Shown here piece by piece: positions 6,876 through 49,345 of a stretch of DNA of 64,000 bases. This DNA comes from a virus. Its lineage: Duplodnaviria; Heunggongvirae; Uroviricota; Caudoviricetes. The notes beneath the pieces were generated by a model. The model did not search any database. It saw only the letters and a list, made by a program, of their open reading frames with translations, and had not been told where the DNA came from. The position numbers and the translations under genes were made by a program. The stretch lies in the IMG/VR virus record IMGVR_UViG_3300035698_029829, positions 71,427 to 135,426 of that record; one strand, 5' to 3'. Every line of letters starts with the position of its first letter. Position 1 is the stretch's first letter.

Positions 6876-8795
6876 TTAATCGTCCCCTTCGACAGTACCT
6901 TCTAAGGGATGACCCTTCGGCCACTCCAAAAAGACCTTTCGACCCTTGAAGATCACCAGATCTTCTCGCTTTGACGCCGCCCTCGGAGTAAACACCCAGA
7001 TTACGCGCACACCACGATAATCGGGCTCCGGACACTCGCCGTCGGTGAAGATCACCACATGCGGAATATGTTTTTCTCGGCAGTAGTCAATAATCGGCTG
7101 AAAATCCGTCCCACCACGGCCCTTTACACCAAAAACCATCTTATTTGGATCGTCGTACTCGACGATAGCGTTAACCCGAGCGTCGCACTGCACCCAGTGT
7201 AATGGCACTTCCAGTTCCTCTACGATCCGGTCCATCTCACGCACATAAAGCCGCAGCTCATCATCGCTCACGGAACTTGACGTATCAGTCCCCACCACAA
7301 TCTGGTGAACCGCATCCATCTTTTTACCAGGGAAAAGTTCATCGTTGCGTCGAGATGGACGGCGGAAGGACCTCAGCGGTTTGATTTCAAAGAGATCCGA
7401 AACATACCCGTCGAGAAGATTCTGCCAAGGCACCTGCGGCCGAGCGTTGATTTTTTCAAGGACAGCTTCAACCTCCCCGGGAAGCAATCCTCGGCTCTTC
7501 TCATAGCGCGCCTGGAATTCATCGGCAGCCGTTCGGATGAGGCCCTCAATCTTATGTTGCACGTAAGCTCGAAAATCTGGATCTGAGAGCGTCGGCGGTG
7601 TAAATTCAGGGTCCTGTCCTTCACCCGCATCCTCATCAACCTCACCCGCATTTCCACACATGGCTCCATGATCATCCATCGTCGTCTTGCCGAGCGCACT
7701 GTGCTGTTGATCGCGTCCATAAATTTTATCGGCCGAAGCGGTTCGATCACAGTCACCAGCTTGCGGCTCACCATTTCCACCGCTTTGACCCTGTTCGCCC
7801 TGTTCGCCCTTTTGATTCTGTTGATCCTGTTCGCCCTTTTGATTCTGTTGATCCTGTTCGCCCTTTTGATTCTGTTGATCCTGTTCGCCCTGTTCGCCCT
7901 GTTGATCCTGTTCGCCCTTTTGATTCTGTTGATCCTGTTCGCCCTTTTGATTCTGTTGATCCTGTTCGCCTTGTTGATCCTGTTCGCCCTGTTGATCCTG
8001 TTCGCCTTGTTGACTGTCGCCCTCTCTTTTTTCATTATTCTCAAAAAGCGACCATCCCCCACCACCAGACTTTTCAACTGGATCGGGAAGCATCCGAGCG
8101 TAGTCTTCAGCAGCCAACTTCCCAGGCATATCGTAAAGCTGAATGGTTTGAGCGAAAGACCACAGCCAATCGTCAGGGATGTACTGGTTTACCTCCAAAT
8201 CCATTCCTATGCTCATCTTATCGTTCAGTTTTTTGTCATCCCCGAAGATCTGCCCACGCGTAAGATGCCGACACACGAGATGTAACAGCTCGTGTTTCAC
8301 ACACCCCATACGAACTAACGAGGTCTTCTCCAATTGGTCGATCCACATCCGTTCGAAGTCAGTAATGCCCGAGCCTCGAAAATAATCAACAACCTGTTCA
8401 TCATCGTATTCTCGTGCTGCGGGCAAGTTCTCCATATTATCGCCACAGAGGCTCATATAAGTCCAGAAAGCAGGATTCACCACCATCCACAGATCACGGC
8501 CTTCAACAGCAACGCAGCAGGTAGGCAAGTACCTTTTCACCTTTACCCACTTCTTGGTTTTCAGAGTGCGGCCCCAGGCACGAGTAAAAACGCCGAACCG
8601 AAATTGAAGACGATTGTAAAAAAGCCCGTACCACGGGTCTTTACGGATTAATCGCCCAATTGCCTGATCGAAACTGTATTTCAGGCGTCGCTCATCATTC
8701 ATGGCCTTTCTCATCATTGTGATATAGGTCGGCAAGTCCCGCATATCGAATTTCATGCCGGGCGGCGGAGCGTCGATGAGCCTGGCTGTTTCCAT
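6876..8795 (-). CDS. metallopeptidase-like (HELLH) + Q/E-rich repeat + C-terminal VWA-domain protein
   Basis: 'HELLHLVCRH' HExxH; C-term 'VGTDTSSSVSD...VIFTDG' MIDAS/VWA; directly downstream of the MoxR-like ATPase. Confidence 0.65.
   Translation of the reverse strand: METARLIDAPPPGMKFDMRDLPTYITMMRKAMNDERRLKYSFDQAIGRLIRKDPWYGLFYNRLQFRFGVFTRAWGRTLKTKKWVKVKRYLPTCCVAVEGRDLWMVVNPAFWTYMSLCGDNMENLPAAREYDDEQVVDYFRGSGITDFERMWIDQLEKTSLVRMGCVKHELLHLVCRHLTRGQIFGDDKKLNDKMSIGMDLEVNQYIPDDWLWSFAQTIQLYDMPGKLAAEDYARMLPDPVEKSGGGGWSLFENNEKREGDSQQGEQDQQGEQDQQGEQDQQNQKGEQDQQNQKGEQDQQGEQGEQDQQNQKGEQDQQNQKGEQDQQNQKGEQGEQGQSGGNGEPQAGDCDRTASADKIYGRDQQHSALGKTTMDDHGAMCGNAGEVDEDAGEGQDPEFTPPTLSDPDFRAYVQHKIEGLIRTAADEFQARYEKSRGLLPGEVEAVLEKINARPQVPWQNLLDGYVSDLFEIKPLRSFRRPSRRNDELFPGKKMDAVHQIVVGTDTSSSVSDDELRLYVREMDRIVEELEVPLHWVQCDARVNAIVEYDDPNKMVFGVKGRGGTDFQPIIDYCREKHIPHVVIFTDGECPEPDYRGVRVIWVFTPRAASKREDLVIFKGRKVFLEWPKGHPLEGTVEGDD
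7789..8015. repeat. 9/18/30-bp nested tandem repeats (ctgttcgcc / cttttgattctgttgatc), coding
   Basis: Encode GEQDQQ(NQK) units inside CDS 6876..8795. Confidence 0.85.
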
Positions 8796-28386: not shown

Positions 28387-28881
28387 TTATAGAGGCGGAT
28401 AGACCAACACGAGGAACGGGAGCGCCTCCAGGGCCTCCAAAATCAACGGCCGCACATCATTCCAGGCAAGCCCCCCATTAGCGCAGCCAAGCGCAGGTAC
28501 CGCCACCGAAATAACGCCAAGCGTAGGAAGCACTTTCACCAAACTCACGAGCCCAGCACGCACGTCATCAAGCCTCGACGGCTCACGCCAATGACGTTTG
28601 GTCGGCAGATTCACAACGAAGCGCGGACCCTCCGGCGGCCACAAACCGGTTGCCGAGATGAAAATATGACCCGGCGCGACGAGGCCAACCTCGCAAGCGT
28701 ACCGATAGTCGGCGTAAACCTTCGGGAAGCGCCGCTTCACAGCGAGGGCGATGCCCTTCCCCATGACGCTCACACAGTTTACGGTATTAACCAGCGCCTC
28801 CGCACCAGACGCGAAGATGTCGCCGGTCGTCTCAACGATCATCGTCAACCCTTGATGGTGTTCGGGTACTTCTCGACCCAT
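28387..28881 (-). CDS. macro-domain (ADP-ribose binding/hydrolase) protein
   Basis: 'ALVNTVNCVSVMGKGIALAVKRRFP' (cf. 'VNAAN..L.GGGVAGAI'), 'GCANGGL'. Confidence 0.6.
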   Translation of the reverse strand: MGREVPEHHQGLTMIVETTGDIFASGAEALVNTVNCVSVMGKGIALAVKRRFPKVYADYRYACEVGLVAPGHIFISATGLWPPEGPRFVVNLPTKRHWREPSRLDDVRAGLVSLVKVLPTLGVISVAVPALGCANGGLAWNDVRPLILEALEALPFLVLVYPPL

Positions 28882-29162
28882 ACCCAGATTTCCAGGAACT
28901 TCCCATCCTCGCTGAACTTGGAGAAATACCCCGGCTTTGTGATCCTAGTGCCGGAGTCAAACAAAGCAGCGACAAGTTGGTGCTTAGCCTGCGTTAATTC
29001 CGCGAGGAAATCCGCTTTCATACTTGCAATGTTCTCATCGACCGCCGCCTGGACCGAGCTGATCGTCAGACCACCCGTTAGGGCGGTGGGATAGCCGTGC
29101 TTTTCGTATCTACGACCGGCGTACTCGAACGCCTCAGCGAGGTCGTCCAGTAGGTTGGTCAA
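28845..29162 (-). CDS. hypothetical protein, N-terminus abuts IS right end (possibly truncated)
   Basis: Only a TTG start, located at the IS#1 boundary; begins with the TTGACCAAC promoter-like remnant. Confidence 0.3.
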   Translation of the reverse strand: MTNLLDDLAEAFEYAGRRYEKHGYPTALTGGLTISSVQAAVDENIASMKADFLAELTQAKHQLVAALFDSGTRITKPGYFSKFSEDGKFLEIWVWVEKYPNTIKG

Positions 29163-30392
29163 TTACCCACGAATAAATTCGTGGGCTTGTAACTGAGGGA
29201 CACCACATGTGCAGAACTCGCTACCTTATCGGTCCTGAAACCGATGTTCGGCTGATTGACGACAGCCCTCGCACGGATGTTCCGTGCGGCGATGTGATCG
29301 GCTGGGCCAGCAGAACCGCAGTCGATGCACTGAAATTCATCCCTGGTCGGTCGGTTCCGTTTATCGACCGACCCACAGATTGGACAAGTTTGACTGGTGT
29401 AGGCCGGATCAACAAAGACCACGGGAACACCGACCAATTTAGCCTTGTAGGAAACAAAGGTTTGCAGTTGTCCAAATCCCCAATTTCCCAAACGTGCCCG
29501 CTGACGGCGGCTGGCCTTAATTCGAGATCGGATACCACTCAAATCTTCGAGAGCGATAGTCCGGCTCGTAGCGTTCGCCGTTTGCACGATGGATTTAGAG
29601 ACGACATGATTAACGTTCTTTTGAAATCTGGATTGCTTGCCGGAAATCTGGCGGAGTTTTCGCTTGGCTGCCTTGGTTCCTTTTCGTTGCAGGTTCTTCC
29701 GTCGATGAGTGTGTTTCTGACGTTTCTTTTCAACAGCCTCACCGGAGTAAGTTTTCCCGTCGCTATCGACGGCGAGGTTGACGATGCCGCAATCGACACC
29801 GAGAACGTCAGTGGTTTTGATAAGATCGGGCTCATCTATGTCACAGACGACAGCGAGATACCATTTGCCGCGAATAAACATCAGGTCAATTTCGCCTTTG
29901 CGGAAGGGCAAGAGTTTCCGCTGTCGTTCACCGCAGACGAAAGGGATTTTTGTTCGACCGCCGATGACCCACAAACTTACTTCGTCGTCTTTGACAAAGC
30001 GGAGGATGCGACTGTCGTAGGGTTGGGCGGCGTGTTCACGAAAGGTTCGTTTAACCTTCCGGTCGAGTTTATAGGCGTCGGCAACTTTGGCAATGCAACG
30101 GACGGCGGCTTGGGCGGTCATCTCAAACCGTTCACGAACTTCGTAGTAAGCAAGTTTGTGGAGATCGTACTGTCGAAAGACCCCGGCTTTCCAGCCAGCT
30201 TCGGACAGCCAGTTACAAGCAGCATTGCATGCTTCCAGTGTACGCCTGAGCAACTCGGCCTGCTCGGTAGATGGTATCAATTTGAGATTTACGACGAGTT
30301 TCATGCGTCAAGTATAGATATCGTCAAACAGGAAGTCAATAAGAATAAGCAATTCCTCCCACGGATAAATCCGTGGGTTTCCTTGCTGGGGG
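29155..30392 (-). mobile_element. IS200/IS605-family element, tnpB-only (IS1341-like), copy 1
   Basis: Subterminal hairpins CCCACGAATAAATTCGTGGG (29166-29185) and CCCACGGATAAATCCGTGGG (30358-30377) flank a TnpB gene; internal TTGACT-17-TATACT promoter before tnpB ATG. Confidence 0.8.
29159..30304 (-). CDS. tnpB: TnpB (IS605 OrfB-family RNA-guided nuclease)
   Basis: 'LKLIPSTEQ' N-term; RuvC 'LGVDCGIVNLA', 'IALEDL'; C-term 'DPAYTSQTCPICG..CIDCG..DADHIAARNI'. Confidence 0.85.
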   Translation of the reverse strand: MKLVVNLKLIPSTEQAELLRRTLEACNAACNWLSEAGWKAGVFRQYDLHKLAYYEVRERFEMTAQAAVRCIAKVADAYKLDRKVKRTFREHAAQPYDSRILRFVKDDEVSLWVIGGRTKIPFVCGERQRKLLPFRKGEIDLMFIRGKWYLAVVCDIDEPDLIKTTDVLGVDCGIVNLAVDSDGKTYSGEAVEKKRQKHTHRRKNLQRKGTKAAKRKLRQISGKQSRFQKNVNHVVSKSIVQTANATSRTIALEDLSGIRSRIKASRRQRARLGNWGFGQLQTFVSYKAKLVGVPVVFVDPAYTSQTCPICGSVDKRNRPTRDEFQCIDCGSAGPADHIAARNIRARAVVNQPNIGFRTDKVASSAHVVSLSYKPTNLFVGN

Positions 30393-30487
30393 CATCATGA
30401 CTACACCGTTGTACTTCTCGACGGAGAAACGGCAGATAAGCCTCGTAGTTGCTCCGGTTTCTTGTGGTTTTGTCACACTTGCCTCCG

Positions 30488-43743: not shown

Positions 43744-44069
43744 GATGGAAACCTCGGCGTCTTATTCTCAACCGTCTCAGTGTTCACAAAGGTTGTAACC
43801 TGTACCTTACCGCACTTCCGACACTCGCGCCGCCAGCGATCCTCGGTACGCGATGGCACATCAAGCGGCAGCCGCCGATCAACTCCCATCGTACCCGGCG
43901 GATCGCCAAGGCTGTGGTAGCCCTTATAACGGATCGGATCGTACTCCGGCTCCGTCCAATCGTGTGAACAAGCCTGTTCAGCAGCCGCCAGACGCGCCTT
44001 CGCCGCCTCGTACTTCAGTTTAGCCGACTTCACGTCTTGACGTAGCATCTTTGCATCGCTATTCATCAT
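43740..44069 (-). CDS. hypothetical zinc-ribbon protein
   Basis: 'CSHDW...CRKCGKV'. Confidence 0.4.
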   Translation of the reverse strand: MMNSDAKMLRQDVKSAKLKYEAAKARLAAAEQACSHDWTEPEYDPIRYKGYHSLGDPPGTMGVDRRLPLDVPSRTEDRWRRECRKCGKVQVTTFVNTETVENKTPRFPS

Positions 44070-44329
44070 TTCTTCCTTTCCTCCGGCCCGGGAAGGGCCA
44101 GCTCGCGCGCCGTGCCCTCGCCGTTAAGAATGTCGGCCACGTCGTCAAGGGTCAAAACCTTTCCACACTTTTTACAACGAAGCCCCGATCCGCTACTCAC
44201 ATTAAAGTCGATCTGTGTGAACCAAGATTCCCACACATGTTGGCAATCATCAGCCACAGTAGCCTCCCCACCCGTCGTCGTAGAAGATGGTCGTACCATC
44301 CATCGAGACGCGCGGTTTGGGCGGCCCAT
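44066..44329 (-). CDS. hypothetical zinc-ribbon protein
   Basis: 'CQHVW...CKKCGKV' (paralog-like of the preceding ORF). Confidence 0.35.
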   Translation of the reverse strand: MGRPNRASRWMVRPSSTTTGGEATVADDCQHVWESWFTQIDFNVSSGSGLRCKKCGKVLTLDDVADILNGEGTARELALPGPEERKK

Positions 44330-44714
44330 TCGGCAGTCCCATGCTCTCGGCGATGCTCTTCAAGTAATCGGCCTTCATCTCCCCAAATGCCTTCTTACCA
44401 CCCTGCTGCTGCCGCTTCTTGTAAAGCCCGTGCAGGTGAATGTGGATGGCGATTACGTGAGAACACGCCTGCCACGTCTTGGTGAGGGTGCAATCACTCT
44501 GATCGAGGCCCCTCGCCCTTCGCGCAAGGTCGATCAAATCATCCTGGGGCGGACAGATATGCTTCCCATCATCGTGCGCCGCCTGAATGGCCTTCTTCAA
44601 CTTGGCTACCGCCGAATTGCGGTAAGCCGCGCAGGAAGTGCTACCGTTAAACCATTGATAATGGTTCCCAAGCCCGATCCGCGCCATGATCTCAGATTCC
44701 AATTTCAGTGCCAT
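44250..44714 (-). CDS. hypothetical protein
   Basis: ATG (MALKLES) at 44714 with AAGGAG RBS. Confidence 0.4.
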   Translation of the reverse strand: MALKLESEIMARIGLGNHYQWFNGSTSCAAYRNSAVAKLKKAIQAAHDDGKHICPPQDDLIDLARRARGLDQSDCTLTKTWQACSHVIAIHIHLHGLYKKRQQQGGKKAFGEMKADYLKSIAESMGLPNGPPKPRVSMDGTTIFYDDGWGGYCG

Positions 44715-44718
44715 GGAC

Positions 44719-45405
44719 TTACTCCTTTTCTTCGTCGCGCAGGTCGATCTTCTCGCTCTTCCTGAAAGTTTTCTCGCACTTGGCGCAACTGCGCTCATCA
44801 TCGTAATCGCCCGATCTATGGGTGTCCTCGCTACCACAGTGCGGACACGCGAAGTAAGCCGCCTTGCGTTGGTTATAAGGCTTCTGAAATCCTTTGGCGA
44901 ACTCGTCGATCTTCTTGTGGAGATCTGCCCACTCCTCGTTCCGCCCTCGCACCATCTCCGCATCGTACAAAAACTTGAACAAGGGAAGTGCGTCTTTGTT
45001 GAGCATAGCCTGAGCCGCTACCCCGATGCCATCCAGGCAAAACTGCGCAGCATCCTCCAAACTATGCATAAGGGCTCTCGTTATCCCTTCGACGGCATCA
45101 TCCGGCTCCTTTGGAGTGACCACACTATTCCCTAAGAATTTCATGATCTCGGTATCGGGTTGATTCCTCTTATCAAGATCCCACGGCATCCGTCCCACCG
45201 GTAGTCTTTCGAGCGCAGCCTTGGTAATCAGACCCATTACCTTATCGAGGCTCGTCTCATCGTGACTCGTAGTCGCCCCTATGATCGCGGAACGGGCCGC
45301 CTTGATCATCTCCGTCAGACCTCGGTCCGCCAGTTTACAAAGCACCGGAATAATCACCGCTGCTTCCCTAAAGGTTATCCCGTAAGTGGGTTCCAACGTC
45401 TTCAT
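44719..45405 (-). CDS. hypothetical protein with C-terminal zinc ribbon
   Basis: 'CPHCGSEDTH...CAKCEKTF'. Only a GACAAAC remnant of the promoter motif remains upstream, abutting the IS#2 left end. Confidence 0.5.
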   Translation of the reverse strand: MKTLEPTYGITFREAAVIIPVLCKLADRGLTEMIKAARSAIIGATTSHDETSLDKVMGLITKAALERLPVGRMPWDLDKRNQPDTEIMKFLGNSVVTPKEPDDAVEGITRALMHSLEDAAQFCLDGIGVAAQAMLNKDALPLFKFLYDAEMVRGRNEEWADLHKKIDEFAKGFQKPYNQRKAAYFACPHCGSEDTHRSGDYDDERSCAKCEKTFRKSEKIDLRDEEKE

Positions 45406-45449
45406 GTTCTCTCCCTTCAGCTCGCGCTGTTCTTGGTTACGAGTTTGTC

Positions 45450-46785
45450 GGCGGAAAAGCCCACGGTTTCAACCGTGGGATGAAAGCCGACCTAATAAGC
45501 GCTTGACGATCAGTATTGCGAAGATTATACTTATGTCCATGAGAGAAGCCGTCATTCTCAAATTCAGACAACCGACAGCTCGCAAGCTCGCGTGGTTGGA
45601 AAATACGGCTTCCCTTTTTCTTCAAGGCTCTCGCATCGGGCTTGATTTTGCTCTCGCGAACAAGACCACCAACAGAAGTGCGATCCATAAAACCGCTTAC
45701 AGAAAATGCCGCAATACTGGACTTCCTTCCGACTACTCGCGCATGGCCGTCAACAACGCGGTTCAACACGCCGCGTCCTACCTCGGACCCAGAAAGTCCA
45801 GGCGGCGCGTCGGAAAACCCGTACTCTCTGGCTCCACCATCGGGTTGGGAGTTGCCAGTTACGCTGTCGTGGATAATGTCCTGCGTGTTTCCACCGGCAA
45901 ACGAGGCACCTACATCTGGCTGCCTCTCTGTGTTCCCAAAAAGTGGCGTAACCGTCTTCAATACGTCAAAGGTGACGCCAAGCTCTTCAAAAGAAACGAT
46001 ACCTGGTTCGTCATGCTTCCTCTTCGTACTCCCGACTCGCCTACCGTCCGTGACGGCGATCCTACGGTCCTCGGCGTAGACTTGGGCATCGTGCGGCTGA
46101 TGACGGTCAGAACTCCTGATGGTATCAAAGTTTGGAATGGAAAGGAGATCAGGAGTCGACGAGAGCACTTCGCGGCCGTCCGCAAGAGGTATCAACAGCA
46201 TGGGCGCATGGATCGAGTCAAGATCACCAAAAACAAGGAACGACGCTGGATGGCAAACGTTAACCATAAAGCCAGCCGCGAATTGGTCGATCTCGCCGCC
46301 CAGTTTCCTAACCCCGTGATCGCCTTCGAAAGGCTCGACGGCATCAGAAATCGAGTGTCCGGTAGCAAACGATTCAACCGGATGATCTCTAATTGGGCCT
46401 TTCGAGACTTGATTAACAAGACCGAGTACAAGGCTGCTAAGGCTGGTATTCGTGTTGTATTTATCAACCCGAAAGGCACCAGCCGTACTTGTCCTCGGTG
46501 TGGTCATTCCACTCGATCCAATCGTCCCACGCAGACCGACTTTAGATGTGTCGCCTGCGGCTATCGCGGCAATGCCGACGCGGTAGCGTCGATCAACATC
46601 TCTGCGAGAGCGATTGACTTGCTTTCGCATGGGCCGCCTGACACGGCCCGGCCCGCAAGGGTACAGGATGGGAAGACCGTTTCCTGTCCCGATGGAGCCT
46701 CTGGATGTTCGCCTTTGGTGCATCTAAACTCCAACCTCGTAAGTTCCTAGTAGGAACCCCACGGCTTAAGCCGTGGAAGGATGTC
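45450..46785 (+). mobile_element. IS200/IS605-family element, tnpB-only, copy 2
   Basis: Hairpins CCCACGGTTTCAACCGTGGG (45460-45479) and CCCCACGGCTTAAGCCGTGG (46757-46776). The LE carries TTGACG-17-TATACT before tnpB, the same architecture as copy 1. Confidence 0.8.
45533..46750 (+). CDS. tnpB: TnpB (IS605 OrfB-family)
   Basis: 'VILKFRQPTARK', 'LGVDLGIVRLMT', 'IAFERL', 'NPKGTSRTCPRCG...CVACG..NADAVASINI'. Confidence 0.85.
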   Translation: MSMREAVILKFRQPTARKLAWLENTASLFLQGSRIGLDFALANKTTNRSAIHKTAYRKCRNTGLPSDYSRMAVNNAVQHAASYLGPRKSRRRVGKPVLSGSTIGLGVASYAVVDNVLRVSTGKRGTYIWLPLCVPKKWRNRLQYVKGDAKLFKRNDTWFVMLPLRTPDSPTVRDGDPTVLGVDLGIVRLMTVRTPDGIKVWNGKEIRSRREHFAAVRKRYQQHGRMDRVKITKNKERRWMANVNHKASRELVDLAAQFPNPVIAFERLDGIRNRVSGSKRFNRMISNWAFRDLINKTEYKAAKAGIRVVFINPKGTSRTCPRCGHSTRSNRPTQTDFRCVACGYRGNADAVASINISARAIDLLSHGPPDTARPARVQDGKTVSCPDGASGCSPLVHLNSNLVSS

Positions 46786-46810
46786 AGCAATATTGTTCCC
46801 ATCCGCAACC

Positions 46811-46846
46811 AATCTACAAAATCAGACAGAGTTTGTCAAGAGCTTT
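46811..46846 (-). promoter_or_regulatory. conserved promoter motif facing the IS#2 right end (orphaned)
   Basis: TTGACAAACTCTGTCTGATTTTGTAGATT. The next downstream minus-strand sequence is the IS#2 RE hairpin, not a gene. Confidence 0.5.
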
Positions 46847-46850
46847 TATA

Positions 46851-47072
46851 TTATCTCTGTCCTTTCTTACGGCGTTGCCGACGTTTCATCGCCAGCTTCT
46901 TCTTTTGAGCGCGCCGTGCCGCCCGATCTTCTTCAGTACGCTCGGATTTCTCAGCCCGTTCGCGGAGATGGATCGGTCGATGCTTCGGCGTCGGTGGCAA
47001 TAGGTTCTCAGCCATAGCTCCGGTCAACGCAAGCACTGACAACAGATCGGCGGTCTTCTTCTTGGTCATCAC
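46851..47072 (-). CDS. hypothetical small basic protein
   Basis: 73-aa ORF. Confidence 0.3.
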   Translation of the reverse strand: MMTKKKTADLLSVLALTGAMAENLLPPTPKHRPIHLRERAEKSERTEEDRAARRAQKKKLAMKRRQRRKKGQR

Positions 47073-47557
47073 AGCATCCCTGGGAAGGCGTCGACAAAAC
47101 GCACCTTCAAATCTTCGAACGCCTCGACGACGCGTACCTTCAGATCAGGAAAAGCCTCCACGACTTGCCACTCACCGCAGGCATCCGCGAAGGCGATAAC
47201 GTACCGCACCTTCAAATCTTCGAACGCCTCGACATACCTGATCTTCAGATCCTCGCCCGCTTCAACGAACTGCACCGTACCGTAGAGCTTGTGCCCCTGG
47301 CAGGTACAGTCGGCCGCCACCTTGGGTTCCGCCCCATAAACCTCGGCGACGGAGAGTATCAGCGCGGAGACGACGAATCCAAAGACCACCCCGATCAAAA
47401 TAATCGCACCCCAGAACGACCACTGATGCCACTTGGAGTGACGATGGCCCCGGCTGGATTCCAACACCTCGGCGCGCTCGTTCTGCCGCTTTGCCTTCGC
47501 CCGCTTATTCCGTTGCCTGGCTTGGGCTGCCTTCCGTTCCCGTTGCTTGTTATTCAT
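47069..47557 (-). CDS. membrane protein with (EAFEDLKVRYV)n repeats
   Basis: Basic N-term, TM 'AIILIGVVFGFVVSALILSV', then ~12-aa repeats encoded by ~36-bp DNA repeats at 47100-47270. Confidence 0.5.
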   Translation of the reverse strand: MNNKQRERKAAQARQRNKRAKAKRQNERAEVLESSRGHRHSKWHQWSFWGAIILIGVVFGFVVSALILSVAEVYGAEPKVAADCTCQGHKLYGTVQFVEAGEDLKIRYVEAFEDLKVRYVIAFADACGEWQVVEAFPDLKVRVVEAFEDLKVRFVDAFPGML

Positions 47558-47955
47558 CGCTCCATCTCCTCCCTGTTCGTGTTATCGTCGACCCACCGCT
47601 GCACGGCGTTGATACCCGGGGCATCCGAGTCGACGGCCGGATCGGTGTCACAGAGGTGACAGATCGCCACCAGCCCGTCGGTAAACTGCTGTGACAGCAC
47701 CTCTCCGGTATACTTTCTGGCGAAGTTCTCAATCCGGGTGGTCCTACCGCAGACGCAACAGTACCAGAGGTTCGCATCCCGGAATGCCGTATTCAGCTGA
47801 TTCACGGCCATGCGCGACGGTTGGACCTTTCCACGCTCCCACCGGTTGATCGACGGAAGCGACACGCCCAGCTTGGCAGCCAACTGCTCCTGGGTCCAGC
47901 CCAGGTGCTCCCTCAGTCGCTTAATCGCTACATCCCATCTCATCTTATCACTCAT
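47554..47955 (-). CDS. XRE-family helix-turn-helix transcriptional regulator
   Basis: 'LGWTQEQLAAKLGVSLPSINRWERGK' classic Cro/CI HTH; C-terminal 'CCVCG..C..C'. Confidence 0.65.
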   Translation of the reverse strand: MSDKMRWDVAIKRLREHLGWTQEQLAAKLGVSLPSINRWERGKVQPSRMAVNQLNTAFRDANLWYCCVCGRTTRIENFARKYTGEVLSQQFTDGLVAICHLCDTDPAVDSDAPGINAVQRWVDDNTNREEMER

Positions 47956-47956
47956 C

Positions 47957-49345
47957 TCACGCCTCCACGGCGGCGGCCTGCGCGGTCGCCTTCGCCTTCT
48001 TGGTTTTTTTGCGGGCCTTCTTCAGCTTCGGAGGACCGTTCAACAGCACCACCCGGTTCAGGATGGTCTGCTTCACAGGGCCGTCGGCAGCCCACTTGCC
48101 TTTGCCCGTGTGCAACTCGTGCCGCTTCGCGGTACCTCTGATCCAAACCTTATCGCCGATCTCAGGACGCTCCCACACGGGATTTAGGTTGGGGTTGTCT
48201 TTGTTTTTGGCCCAGCGACCGAGGGTACTGGAACCGAACCATACAAAAACCTGGTCCTTGGGGCCGTAGAATTTGTAGAAGTAGGTCATCCCGTAATGGC
48301 CTTCCCAGGCGTCCTCATGAGCGATTTCGACCTCGATGTCGAACCGTTTACCCACCTCGCCGACGTATTCTGAGGGTTTGCGCTGCTTGCGCGCGGCCCG
48401 CTCGATAGCGATCTCGTGCTCGCGGCGGAAGGCCACCACAGCCGAAGCCAGGAGGTTGGCGCTCCGATCCACCACGAAGCCCATGCTCGCAGCCGTCCGA
48501 AGGTTGTGCAGGTAGTCGTTCAACTCGGCGTCAGGACGCTTATCCAGGGTACCGAGCCAACAGAGCGTCGCGGAGGCCAGGGCACAGGTGTCATCCTCGT
48601 CCAGGGCATCCTCGTAGCGTTCACGCTGCTTGTCGCGCCCCTCAAAGAACGACCGGTAACGCTTATGGTCGCCGGTTATAAGATTGAACACGTCACCACC
48701 GGTTGGGGAGCCGTAACCCTCCTCGCGGCATTTGGTCGAGGAACGATAGCCGAAAACACTCACGAAAGCCGCCGTGGTGTTTACGAAGTGACCCAAGCCG
48801 GTCGAGGGTTCCCAACCACTACCACAGCCGTCGCCGCTATACTCAGCGAACACGGAGACCAACTGTTTGATCCAGGTATAGCGGGAAACCAGCATGTGGG
48901 GGTCGATACCGAGGAAGTCGTGGAGACAGGTGGACCCAACTTGCCGCACCTCGCCGGTCTCGATGTGCTTAACCAGGAAAGTATCCTTGCGGCGACGGCG
49001 GGTGCCGCAGTGGTCGCAGTTCGGACCAGCAGTCCGATACTCAACGGGCACGCTCTCACCAGGCACCGCCTCCAAGACGTTGCCGTCCTCACCCAGGTGC
49101 CACACGCGAGCTAAGAACCGCCACCCACCGATGGCGATCTCCTCACCCTCAACCGTCACTTCGACCCACTCGCGGGTCTCAGTCACGAGGTTGGTGATCT
49201 CATCCTTGCGTTCCTCAACCCAGCGCCGAACCTCTTCGAGAATTGCGCCAGGGACGCCGAGCTTCGCGGCGCGGCGATTTAGCTTCTCGATCTTCTCACG
49301 AACGGTGTCCAGGTTAATGGCGGGTATCTGGTAGGTTTCCTTCAT
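47957..49345 (-). CDS. hypothetical protein (462 aa)
   Basis: ATG (MKETYQ) after GAGGAGAGGAGA RBS and a promoter with perfect TATAAT. Confidence 0.5.
   Translation of the reverse strand: MKETYQIPAINLDTVREKIEKLNRRAAKLGVPGAILEEVRRWVEERKDEITNLVTETREWVEVTVEGEEIAIGGWRFLARVWHLGEDGNVLEAVPGESVPVEYRTAGPNCDHCGTRRRRKDTFLVKHIETGEVRQVGSTCLHDFLGIDPHMLVSRYTWIKQLVSVFAEYSGDGCGSGWEPSTGLGHFVNTTAAFVSVFGYRSSTKCREEGYGSPTGGDVFNLITGDHKRYRSFFEGRDKQRERYEDALDEDDTCALASATLCWLGTLDKRPDAELNDYLHNLRTAASMGFVVDRSANLLASAVVAFRREHEIAIERAARKQRKPSEYVGEVGKRFDIEVEIAHEDAWEGHYGMTYFYKFYGPKDQVFVWFGSSTLGRWAKNKDNPNLNPVWERPEIGDKVWIRGTAKRHELHTGKGKWAADGPVKQTILNRVVLLNGPPKLKKARKKTKKAKATAQAAAVEA

Follow-up and report, generated by a model that had tools for sequence, protein, structure and literature searches.

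In the 64,000-nt stretch of DNA analysed here (the window; positions 71,427 to 135,426 of the IMG/VR virus record IMGVR_UViG_3300035698_029829, Caudoviricetes), which is part of a phage-like genome, a TnpB-only insertion sequence (IS) of the IS200/IS605 type, IS#2, appears from comparison with an IS-free relative to have separated a promoter from its gene. We regard it as probable (roughly 0.82) that this was an ordinary insertion 3' of the tetranucleotide TTAC between the promoter and its operon, that a 9-nt resemblance between the end of the element and the promoter core arose by chance, and that a second element in the window, IS#1, is unrelated and was inserted at TCAT. A first-pass annotation, made from the sequence alone, had proposed that an IS605-family insertion splits a promoter from its gene, and the IS-free contig L003 bears this out. 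It had further suggested that both IS were copies of one element that prefers the phage promoter motif as a target, a plausible idea which the present analysis corrects. TnpB-only IS in phages are already known and IS#2 is an ordinary polar insertion; what the case adds are base-exact boundaries, targets and consequences for two such elements in an uncultured phage, and a clean natural example of an IS moving a promoter and its operon 1.35 kb apart, with convergent transcription over tnpB and the ωRNA.

The decisive evidence is an empty site. The gene now cut off from its promoter keeps an intact open reading frame (ORF) and ribosome-binding site (RBS), and its 228-aa protein has one homologue outside the phage (P0002, 50% identity), located on the IS-free contigs L003 and L004; relatives of this gene were not found in IMG/VR. 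The order in L003 is promoter, a 70-aa ORF, a 204-aa ORF with a weak RNA-ligase match, ...GGGAACAATATTGGTAACCAAGAACGGCGTGAGCCGAGGGAGAGAGAACATG and finally the homologous gene P0002. Positions 476-520 of L003 represent the orthologous promoter, 89% identical to window positions 46851-46807, and blastn homology to L003 resumes precisely at window position 45440. When 45441-46787 are removed in silico, the remaining sequence aligns without gaps to L003 1339-1397 through the joint. The window reads GGTTAC, then the IS, then CAATATTG, and L003 reads GGTTAC followed directly by CAATATTG (GGTTACCAATATTG), with zero bases gained or lost and no target-site duplication at IS#2; on the minus strand the window accordingly runs ...TAGATTGGTTGCGGATGGGAACAATATTG, the element from CTGACATCC to GACAAACTC, and GTAACCAAGAACAGCGCGAGCTGAAGGGAGAGAACATG. 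The distance from the -10 hexamer to the ATG of the 228-aa gene is 1,405 nt at present and 58 nt after excision. Excision, which the first-pass annotation had put forward as a check, restores an intact promoter-gene unit both in silico and against the IS-free relative. The orphan promoter is complete, as that annotation had stated (TTGACA-17-TAGATT, 46839-46811, minus strand; 10/12 matches in the promoter scan), and faces the right end of IS#2.

A second dataset shows this empty site as well, on contig Ga0307992_1059160 of the Joint Genome Institute (JGI); when JGI metagenomes were scanned with the 25-nt empty-site sequence, no contig other than this already known one came up. Exact-protein look-ups with the 72-aa gene and with the TnpB of IS#2 (TnpB#2) recovered the same phage only, always with the IS present, and all three records of the phage that cover the site carry IS#2 (L001, L002, L026). 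Two further genes, absent from the window lineage, come first behind the promoter in L003 and are driven by it. Compared with L003 521-1338, about 817 bp are missing between the promoter and the IS site (window 46788-46810), namely the 70-aa ORF and most of the 204-aa ORF, of which the last 19 nt are kept: window positions 46788-46806, read on the minus strand, align to the codons GWEQYW with which the 204-aa gene ends. The breakpoint of this loss lies 19 nt from the right end of IS#2.

The limits of IS#2, 45441-46787 (Table 1), are given by the break in homology to L003, the gapless excision joint and the conservation of the right end among relatives of the element. The closest relatives of TnpB#2 are encoded in Meiothermus (L005; 58% aa identity) and in metagenome-assembled genomes of Bacillota (L006; 53%), and the right-end scaffold is common to IS#2 and these elements up to ...GGAGGATG(T/C)CAG, with divergence right after; in IS#2 the right terminus reads ...GATGTCAG. 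Compensatory changes were seen in 11 of the 35 pairs predicted for this scaffold in a three-sequence alignment, and no Rfam family matched the window at gathering thresholds. The left ends of the closest relatives were not alignable, and no target-adjacent motif (TAM) could be assigned from them. Both ends of IS#2 fold better as DNA than shuffled sequences (left end -15.2 kcal/mol, z = -4.55; right end z = -4.55), and no terminal inverted repeats were present at the repeat-scan settings used. TnpB#2 matches NCBIfam guided_TnpB (3e-48; 165 bits with a cut-off of 100), Pfam Cas12f1-like_TNB (1.6e-21) and, more weakly, OrfB_IS605; its best solved-structure match is Cas12f 9nzq (1.2e-29), and the alignment with it retains the RuvC D/E/D residues as well as the CxxC...CxxC zinc ribbon. 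The -10 of the tnpB promoter is followed by ATG codons at distances of 1 and 7 nt, and because they are so close to it, the tnpB#2 mRNA is probably leaderless. In the Logan assembly of SRR8526178, unitigs break inside IS#2 (L026 ends at 46638 and L002 starts at 45752), leaving out the central 885 bp of tnpB, which is compatible with extra copies or variants of IS#2 in the sample, e.g. in the host.

IS200/IS605 elements move as single-stranded circles and insert 3' of a short base-paired target without duplicating it (PMC13565253, PMC3201880). The closest parallel in architecture is IS608 of Helicobacter pylori, which inserts 3' of TTAC (PMC3201880) and shares with IS#2 the TTAC target, the lack of a duplication and an encoded TnpB. 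In both elements the left cleavage site C_L is located 19 nt 5' of the hairpin foot, with the guide G_L, AAAG, at the foot (PMC3201880), and the right cleavage site, itself part of the element, follows the right hairpin at about 10 nt on its 3' side (TCAG in IS#2, with the cut point 11 nt from the hairpin foot, and TCAA in IS608). Unlike IS608, IS#2 has no tnpA, which places it in the IS1341 group, and it resides in a phage; its TnpB is nearest to Cas12f-lineage proteins and to the Meiothermus and Bacillota elements, not to that of Helicobacter. Elements of the IS1341 group carry tnpB only and rely on TnpA in trans (PMC13565253). None of the 66 ORFs scanned in the window matched Y1_Tnp at E<=1e-7 and both IS are filled by tnpB, consistent with non-autonomous elements of this group. 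Likewise, ISH12 of the Halobacterium phages phiH and ChaoS9, annotated as "IS1341-type", and the "transposase" of Thermus phage MN1 are phage-borne and TnpB-only, with TnpBs that share 30-32% aa identity with TnpB#2 and with unrelated insertion contexts. Of 50,697 phage records, 310-380 contain TnpB-like matches; a search of the same records with the DNA of window positions 44000-48500 gave no match.

Table 1. Positions of the insertion sequences, their surroundings and further features of the window.
Feature	Position	Strand	Basis or remark
IS#2, TnpB-only IS200/IS605 (IS1341 group), 1,347 bp	45441..46787	+	L003 empty-site comparison, right-end conservation
TTAC target tetranucleotide (cleavage site C_L, presumed TnpB TAM)	45437..45440	+	directly 5' of IS#2 left end
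IS#2 left end	45441..45492	+	19-nt linker, hairpin, outer stem
Linker GAGTTTGTCGGCGGAAAAG, guide-like AAAG at 45456-45459	first 19 nt of IS#2	+	
Left-end hairpin CCCACGG-N6-CCGTGGG	45460-45479	+	
Left-end outer stem GTCGGC with GCCGAC	45447-45452 paired with 45486-45491		
tnpB promoter of IS#2, TTGACG-17-TATACT	45503..45531	+	promoter scan, 10/12 matches
tnpB of IS#2, 405 aa (403 aa from second ATG, 45539)	45533..46750	+	
IS#2 right end, presumed ωRNA scaffold	46610..46787	+	overlaps tnpB 3' end
Right-end hairpins of IS#2	46743-46757 and 46759-46776; terminal TCAG 46784-46787		
19-nt flank CAATATTGTTCCCATCCGC	46788..46806	+	remnant of upstream gene's 3' end; predicted ωRNA guide template
Orphaned promoter AAAAGCTC + TTGACA (46839-46834) + 17 nt + TAGATT (46816-46811)	46811..46847	-	
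228-aa gene, C-terminal zinc ribbon	44719..45405	-	ORF list; first gene of operon cut off from promoter
IS#1, TnpB-only IS200/IS605, 1,239 bp, other family	29158..30396	-	
tnpB of IS#1, 381 aa	29159..30304	-	
TCAT target of IS#1	30397..30400	-	position relative to left-end hairpin conserved in family; in-frame joint
5' fragment of split gene	30397..30476	-	GGAGG RBS, GTG start 30476, 26 codons
3' fragment of split gene	28845..29157	-	"TTG start" 29162-29160 inside IS#1 right end
Repeated promoter motif, sites 1-7	2715, 10314, 12150, 22762, 28378, 32574, 36212	-	
Repeated promoter motif, sites 8-13	36242 (+); 41910, 46839, 49405, 49883, 57651 (-)	+/-	
Third TnpB-like gene, 511 aa	59791-61326	-	in locus 58937-61326
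CRISPR array, 10 repeats of 36 nt (GGTGTGAACACCCTCCGTTTGAGGGGTAATCGCAAC), 9 unique spacers of exactly 30 nt	58937-59566	-	

Several points weigh against an ordinary insertion at TTAC as set out above. The only IS-free type of relative is divergent (50% aa identity in the flanking gene, about 66-72% at the nucleotide level) and has two extra genes between promoter and site, so that the exact ancestral state of the window is reconstructed and not observed. The TTAC target rests on one insertion and on the analogy to IS608, and the prior for nine matching nucleotides in the IS end and the promoter core at just this position is low, about 4^-9. Further, there is no TnpA among the 66 scanned ORFs, and mobility thus requires a transposase supplied elsewhere. 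Finally, the left end contains a weak outward promoter-like site (45539-45512, minus strand, 9/12 matches) that, on its sequence, could also feed the 228-aa gene and its operon.

In the probable course of events, a repeated sigma-70-type promoter serves the phage genes, which are transcribed mainly off the minus strand, and IS#2 integrated by single-strand "peel and paste" 3' of TTAC in the 5' untranslated region of one such operon. The promoter is intact, at 1.4 kb from its gene. Its transcripts would start near 46804, enter the right end of IS#2 and cross the element antisense to tnpB and the ωRNA region before reaching the gene; they would converge and collide with transcription from the IS#2 promoter TTGACG-17-TATACT. 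Antisense transcription from the orphan promoter into tnpB had also been suggested in the first-pass annotation: the antisense orientation towards tnpB and the right end stands on paper, and from it we infer the transcription itself. No convincing minus-strand terminator was detected inside IS#2, where the terminator-like sites of the scan occurred at chance rate; read-through to the operon with a 1.4-kb leader is therefore plausible. Expression of the downstream operon may be reduced or altered, with antisense interference as a further possible consequence of this layout.

On the other hand, the insertion might be non-disruptive and kept because it is useful, either through read-through expression combined with antisense repression of tnpB and the ωRNA, or through the outward promoter of the IS. 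We consider this quite unlikely. The presence of IS#2 in all three site-covering records of the phage would fit such a role, as would the lack of a convincing minus-strand terminator in the element, the weak outward site at its left end and the intact ORF and RBS of the downstream gene; however, the three records may stem from one population, and with its nuclease motifs and ends intact the element looks recent and still selfish, not domesticated.

A different explanation places the promoter motif itself at the centre. The motif (A)AA(A/G)CTCTTGACAAAC-N11-TAnnnT occurs in 13 copies in the window, 12 of them on the minus strand, as are most genes (Table 1). With at most one mismatch, TTGACAAAC is found 25 times compared with 14.3 expected, a number reached in none of 100 shuffles. 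The promoter motif is thus real and non-random, and it marks operon starts genome-wide. All 13 true copies (AAACTCTTGACAAAC-N11-TAnnnT) combine the AAACTCTT half with TTGACA and a -10 hexamer 17 nt downstream, and a T-rich stretch precedes the -10. In 10 of the other 12 copies, an RBS and a start codon follow within 7-31 nt of the -10; the copy at 46839 is the exception, with its next start codon at 45405, 1,405 nt from the -10. The relative L003 carries the same promoter motif.

The first-pass annotation had taken two sequences beside the IS as truncated copies of this motif and proposed that the elements target and cut it, leaving GACAAAC(TC) at IS#2 and TTGACCAAC after IS#1. The quoted sequences do exist at the quoted positions, but both are IS termini and not truncated promoters. 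At IS#2 the true left boundary is 45440|45441, with the element starting in GAGTTTGTC, 9 nt further left than the annotated 45449|45450 (start GGCGGAAAAG), and the supposed GACAAACTC remnant is therefore IS sequence. In the supposed remnant TTGACCAAC before ORF 28845..29162, TTGAC constitutes the last 5 nt of IS#1 (29158-29162) and the TTG start lies inside the IS. What speaks for targeting is the identity of GAGTTTGTC (45441-45449, the first 9 nt of the left end) to 9 nt of the promoter core at 46829-46837, and the difference of TTGACCAAC from TTGACAAAC at one position only. However, the empty site of L003 has no such sequence between TTAC and CAATATTG; the GTC of the 9-mer pairs within the left-end outer stem, and the 19-nt linker fits the geometry of IS608. 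TTGAC is a conserved right-end terminus in independent relatives of IS#1. Moreover, both sites lack the AAACTCTT half and a correctly spaced -10: 45441-45449 hold only GACAAACTC, preceded by CCGCC, and at 29154-29162 TTGACC is preceded by IS sequence, both with no -10. Outside promoters the 7-mer GTTTGTC/GACAAAC is at background frequency (5 and 4 per strand, 3.9 expected each), and IS#1 lies within an ORF. The candidate motif would flank the left end on the complementary strand at IS#2 and the right end on the same strand at IS#1; since these orientations are opposite, no single strand-specific target rule fits. The actual targets are TTAC for IS#2 and TCAT for IS#1, the termini are elsewhere than assumed, and we read the resemblance of GAGTTTGTC to the promoter core as a coincidence; targeting of the motif is very improbable.

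The two identical 9-mers at 45441 and 46829, in direct orientation and bracketing the tnpB region, might alternatively have arisen as a 9-bp target-site duplication, or mark where a longer element ends on either side (about 45450-46837), to which the -10 region and the 19-nt remnant would then belong; yet L003 contains phage sequence homologous to 46788-46851 (the promoter, 89% identical, and the 3' end of the gene), right-end conservation among the relatives stops at 46787, and IS200/IS605 elements generate no target duplications (PMC13565253), which makes this hardly credible.

An ordinary insertion of IS#2 at TTAC leaves IS#1 to be accounted for separately, given that the two are, on sequence grounds, different elements and not the copies of one element they had been taken for: their TnpBs are 34% identical over 235 aa, and the repeat scan revealed no nucleotide repeat linking them. 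TnpB#1 matches NCBIfam guided_TnpB (4.7e-59; 200.6 bits, same cut-off of 100), Pfam Cas12f1-like_TNB (2.1e-21) and OrfB_IS605 (2.5e-9); its homologues at E<1e-30 number 5,567, and it shares 66% identity with the best of them. Hairpins at the left and right ends of IS#1 and IS#2 have z values from -3.05 to -4.55. The right end of the IS#1 family, CAGTTACAAGCC-hairpin-G(T/C)(A/T)(A/G)TTGA(C/T), is common to L018/L019, L021-L024 and L032, with divergence directly after it. At the other end, NTCAT is located 15-20 nt 5' of the left-end hairpin in IS#1, L018, L021 and L033; L017 has CTCAT at a comparable position with no evident left-end hairpin, and L032 has TCAC.

IS#1 had been thought to disrupt a promoter as well, but its excision reveals an interrupted coding sequence. 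Without 29158-30396, the GTG at 30476 is in frame with 28845-29157 and opens a 131-codon ORF, with no duplicated bases, which suggests that IS#1 interrupts a gene after codon 26. The 105-aa ORF beside IS#1 has homologues only in the phage itself and an empty site for IS#1 was not found; because no IS-free relative exists in the databases searched, the boundaries rest on family conservation and on the in-frame joint. The arrangement TTGAC(A/T)-17-TATACT with an ATG 6 nt past the -10 is common to the tnpB of IS#1 (30305-30345, minus strand) and L017, L018, L021 and L033, which suggests that leaderless tnpB mRNAs may be a conserved feature of the IS#1 relatives and of IS#2 (45503-45541). The TGA stop of tnpB#1 overlaps the TTG of the truncated downstream ORF (TTGA, 29159-29162, minus strand), and translational coupling from tnpB#1 is a possible route by which the split gene's 3' fragment is still expressed. 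Public annotation places a 397-aa antisense ORF with no Pfam match, and not tnpB, over IS#1 (L015 2763-3956, equivalent to 29207-30400 on the plus strand); TnpB#1's own sequence is therefore absent from the protein collection.

Under an ordinary insertion, each TnpB would use an ωRNA with a guide copied from the right flank and cut IS-free sites (TTAC + CAATATTGTTCCC...), which would maintain or spread the element. In TnpB-ωRNA homing by ISDra2 and IS605-family elements (PMC8612924; 10.1101/2023.11.20.567912), cleavage strikes a TAM with the right-flank sequence behind it wherever the IS is missing, and the ωRNA scaffold extends over both the 3' end of tnpB and the right end; the same logic and scaffold position are predicted for IS#2, and by this analogy the ωRNA of TnpB#2 would end in a guide from 46788 onward and may cut TTAC-flanked empty sites. 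The TAM here would be TTAC or TCAT, in contrast to TTGAT in ISDra2-type elements, and cleavage would act on sibling or related phage genomes in co-infection instead of on a sister chromosome. The predicted guide of IS#2 (CAATATTGTTCCCATC...) matches the uninterrupted site of L003 beside TTAC (TTAC + CAATATTGTTCCCAGC) in the first 14 positions and in 18 of 19 overall. It is conceivable, though unlikely, that both TnpB elements go further and act as RNA-guided devices for homing or competition between phages; a co-infecting IS-free relative would then be cut and converted or killed. The phage and the L003 type form a natural pair of donor and empty site usable for probing TnpB homing between phages. 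TnpB cuts about 15-21 bp from the TAM. Given this range and the position of the breakpoint at the distal edge of the predicted ωRNA target, the loss of about 817 bp may be the repair scar of a TnpB cut, or it may be a coincidence.

A third TnpB-like gene is found elsewhere in the window, beside an array of clustered regularly interspaced short palindromic repeats (CRISPR) that starts about 225 nt downstream of it on the minus strand. The 511-aa protein matches NCBIfam guided_TnpB (184.9 bits) and Pfam HTH_OrfB_IS605, OrfB_IS605 and Cas12f1-like_TNB, and among solved structures ISDra2 TnpB (about 1e-30) and LaTranC (1.8e-16). The last three, distal repeats of the array are degenerate, and its leader contains a promoter-like TTGACAAAA (59651-59643). 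Neither cas1 nor cas2 was found among the window ORFs and no anti-repeat was seen near the 511-aa gene. Spacer targets were absent from the window and the fetched loci (up to 6 mismatches), from the phage collection and, for two spacers, from IMG/VR, and the distant IMG/VR relatives of the protein that were checked had no CRISPR-like array. The locus 58937-61326 looks like a phage-borne miniature type V or "TranC"-like system, with a precedent published for the Thermus "Lalka" phages (PMC11437467). Together with it, the phage would carry three RNA-guided nucleases if the homing role of the two IS were true.

The window further encodes ribonucleotide reductase, a Pol III alpha/PHP polymerase, RNase HII, an HNH endonuclease, a CHAP/PG-binding lysin, a GP17 superinfection-exclusion protein and a DNA methylase. 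In-frame tandem repeats are present in coding regions at 1905-2036, 7735-8040, 47084-47284 and 61776-61938 (periods of 18, 9, 33 and 42 nt). The 9-nt array is located within a 639-aa ORF, and the 33-nt array within a 162-aa ORF (47069-47557) where the public gene call has a Septknot Pfam match.

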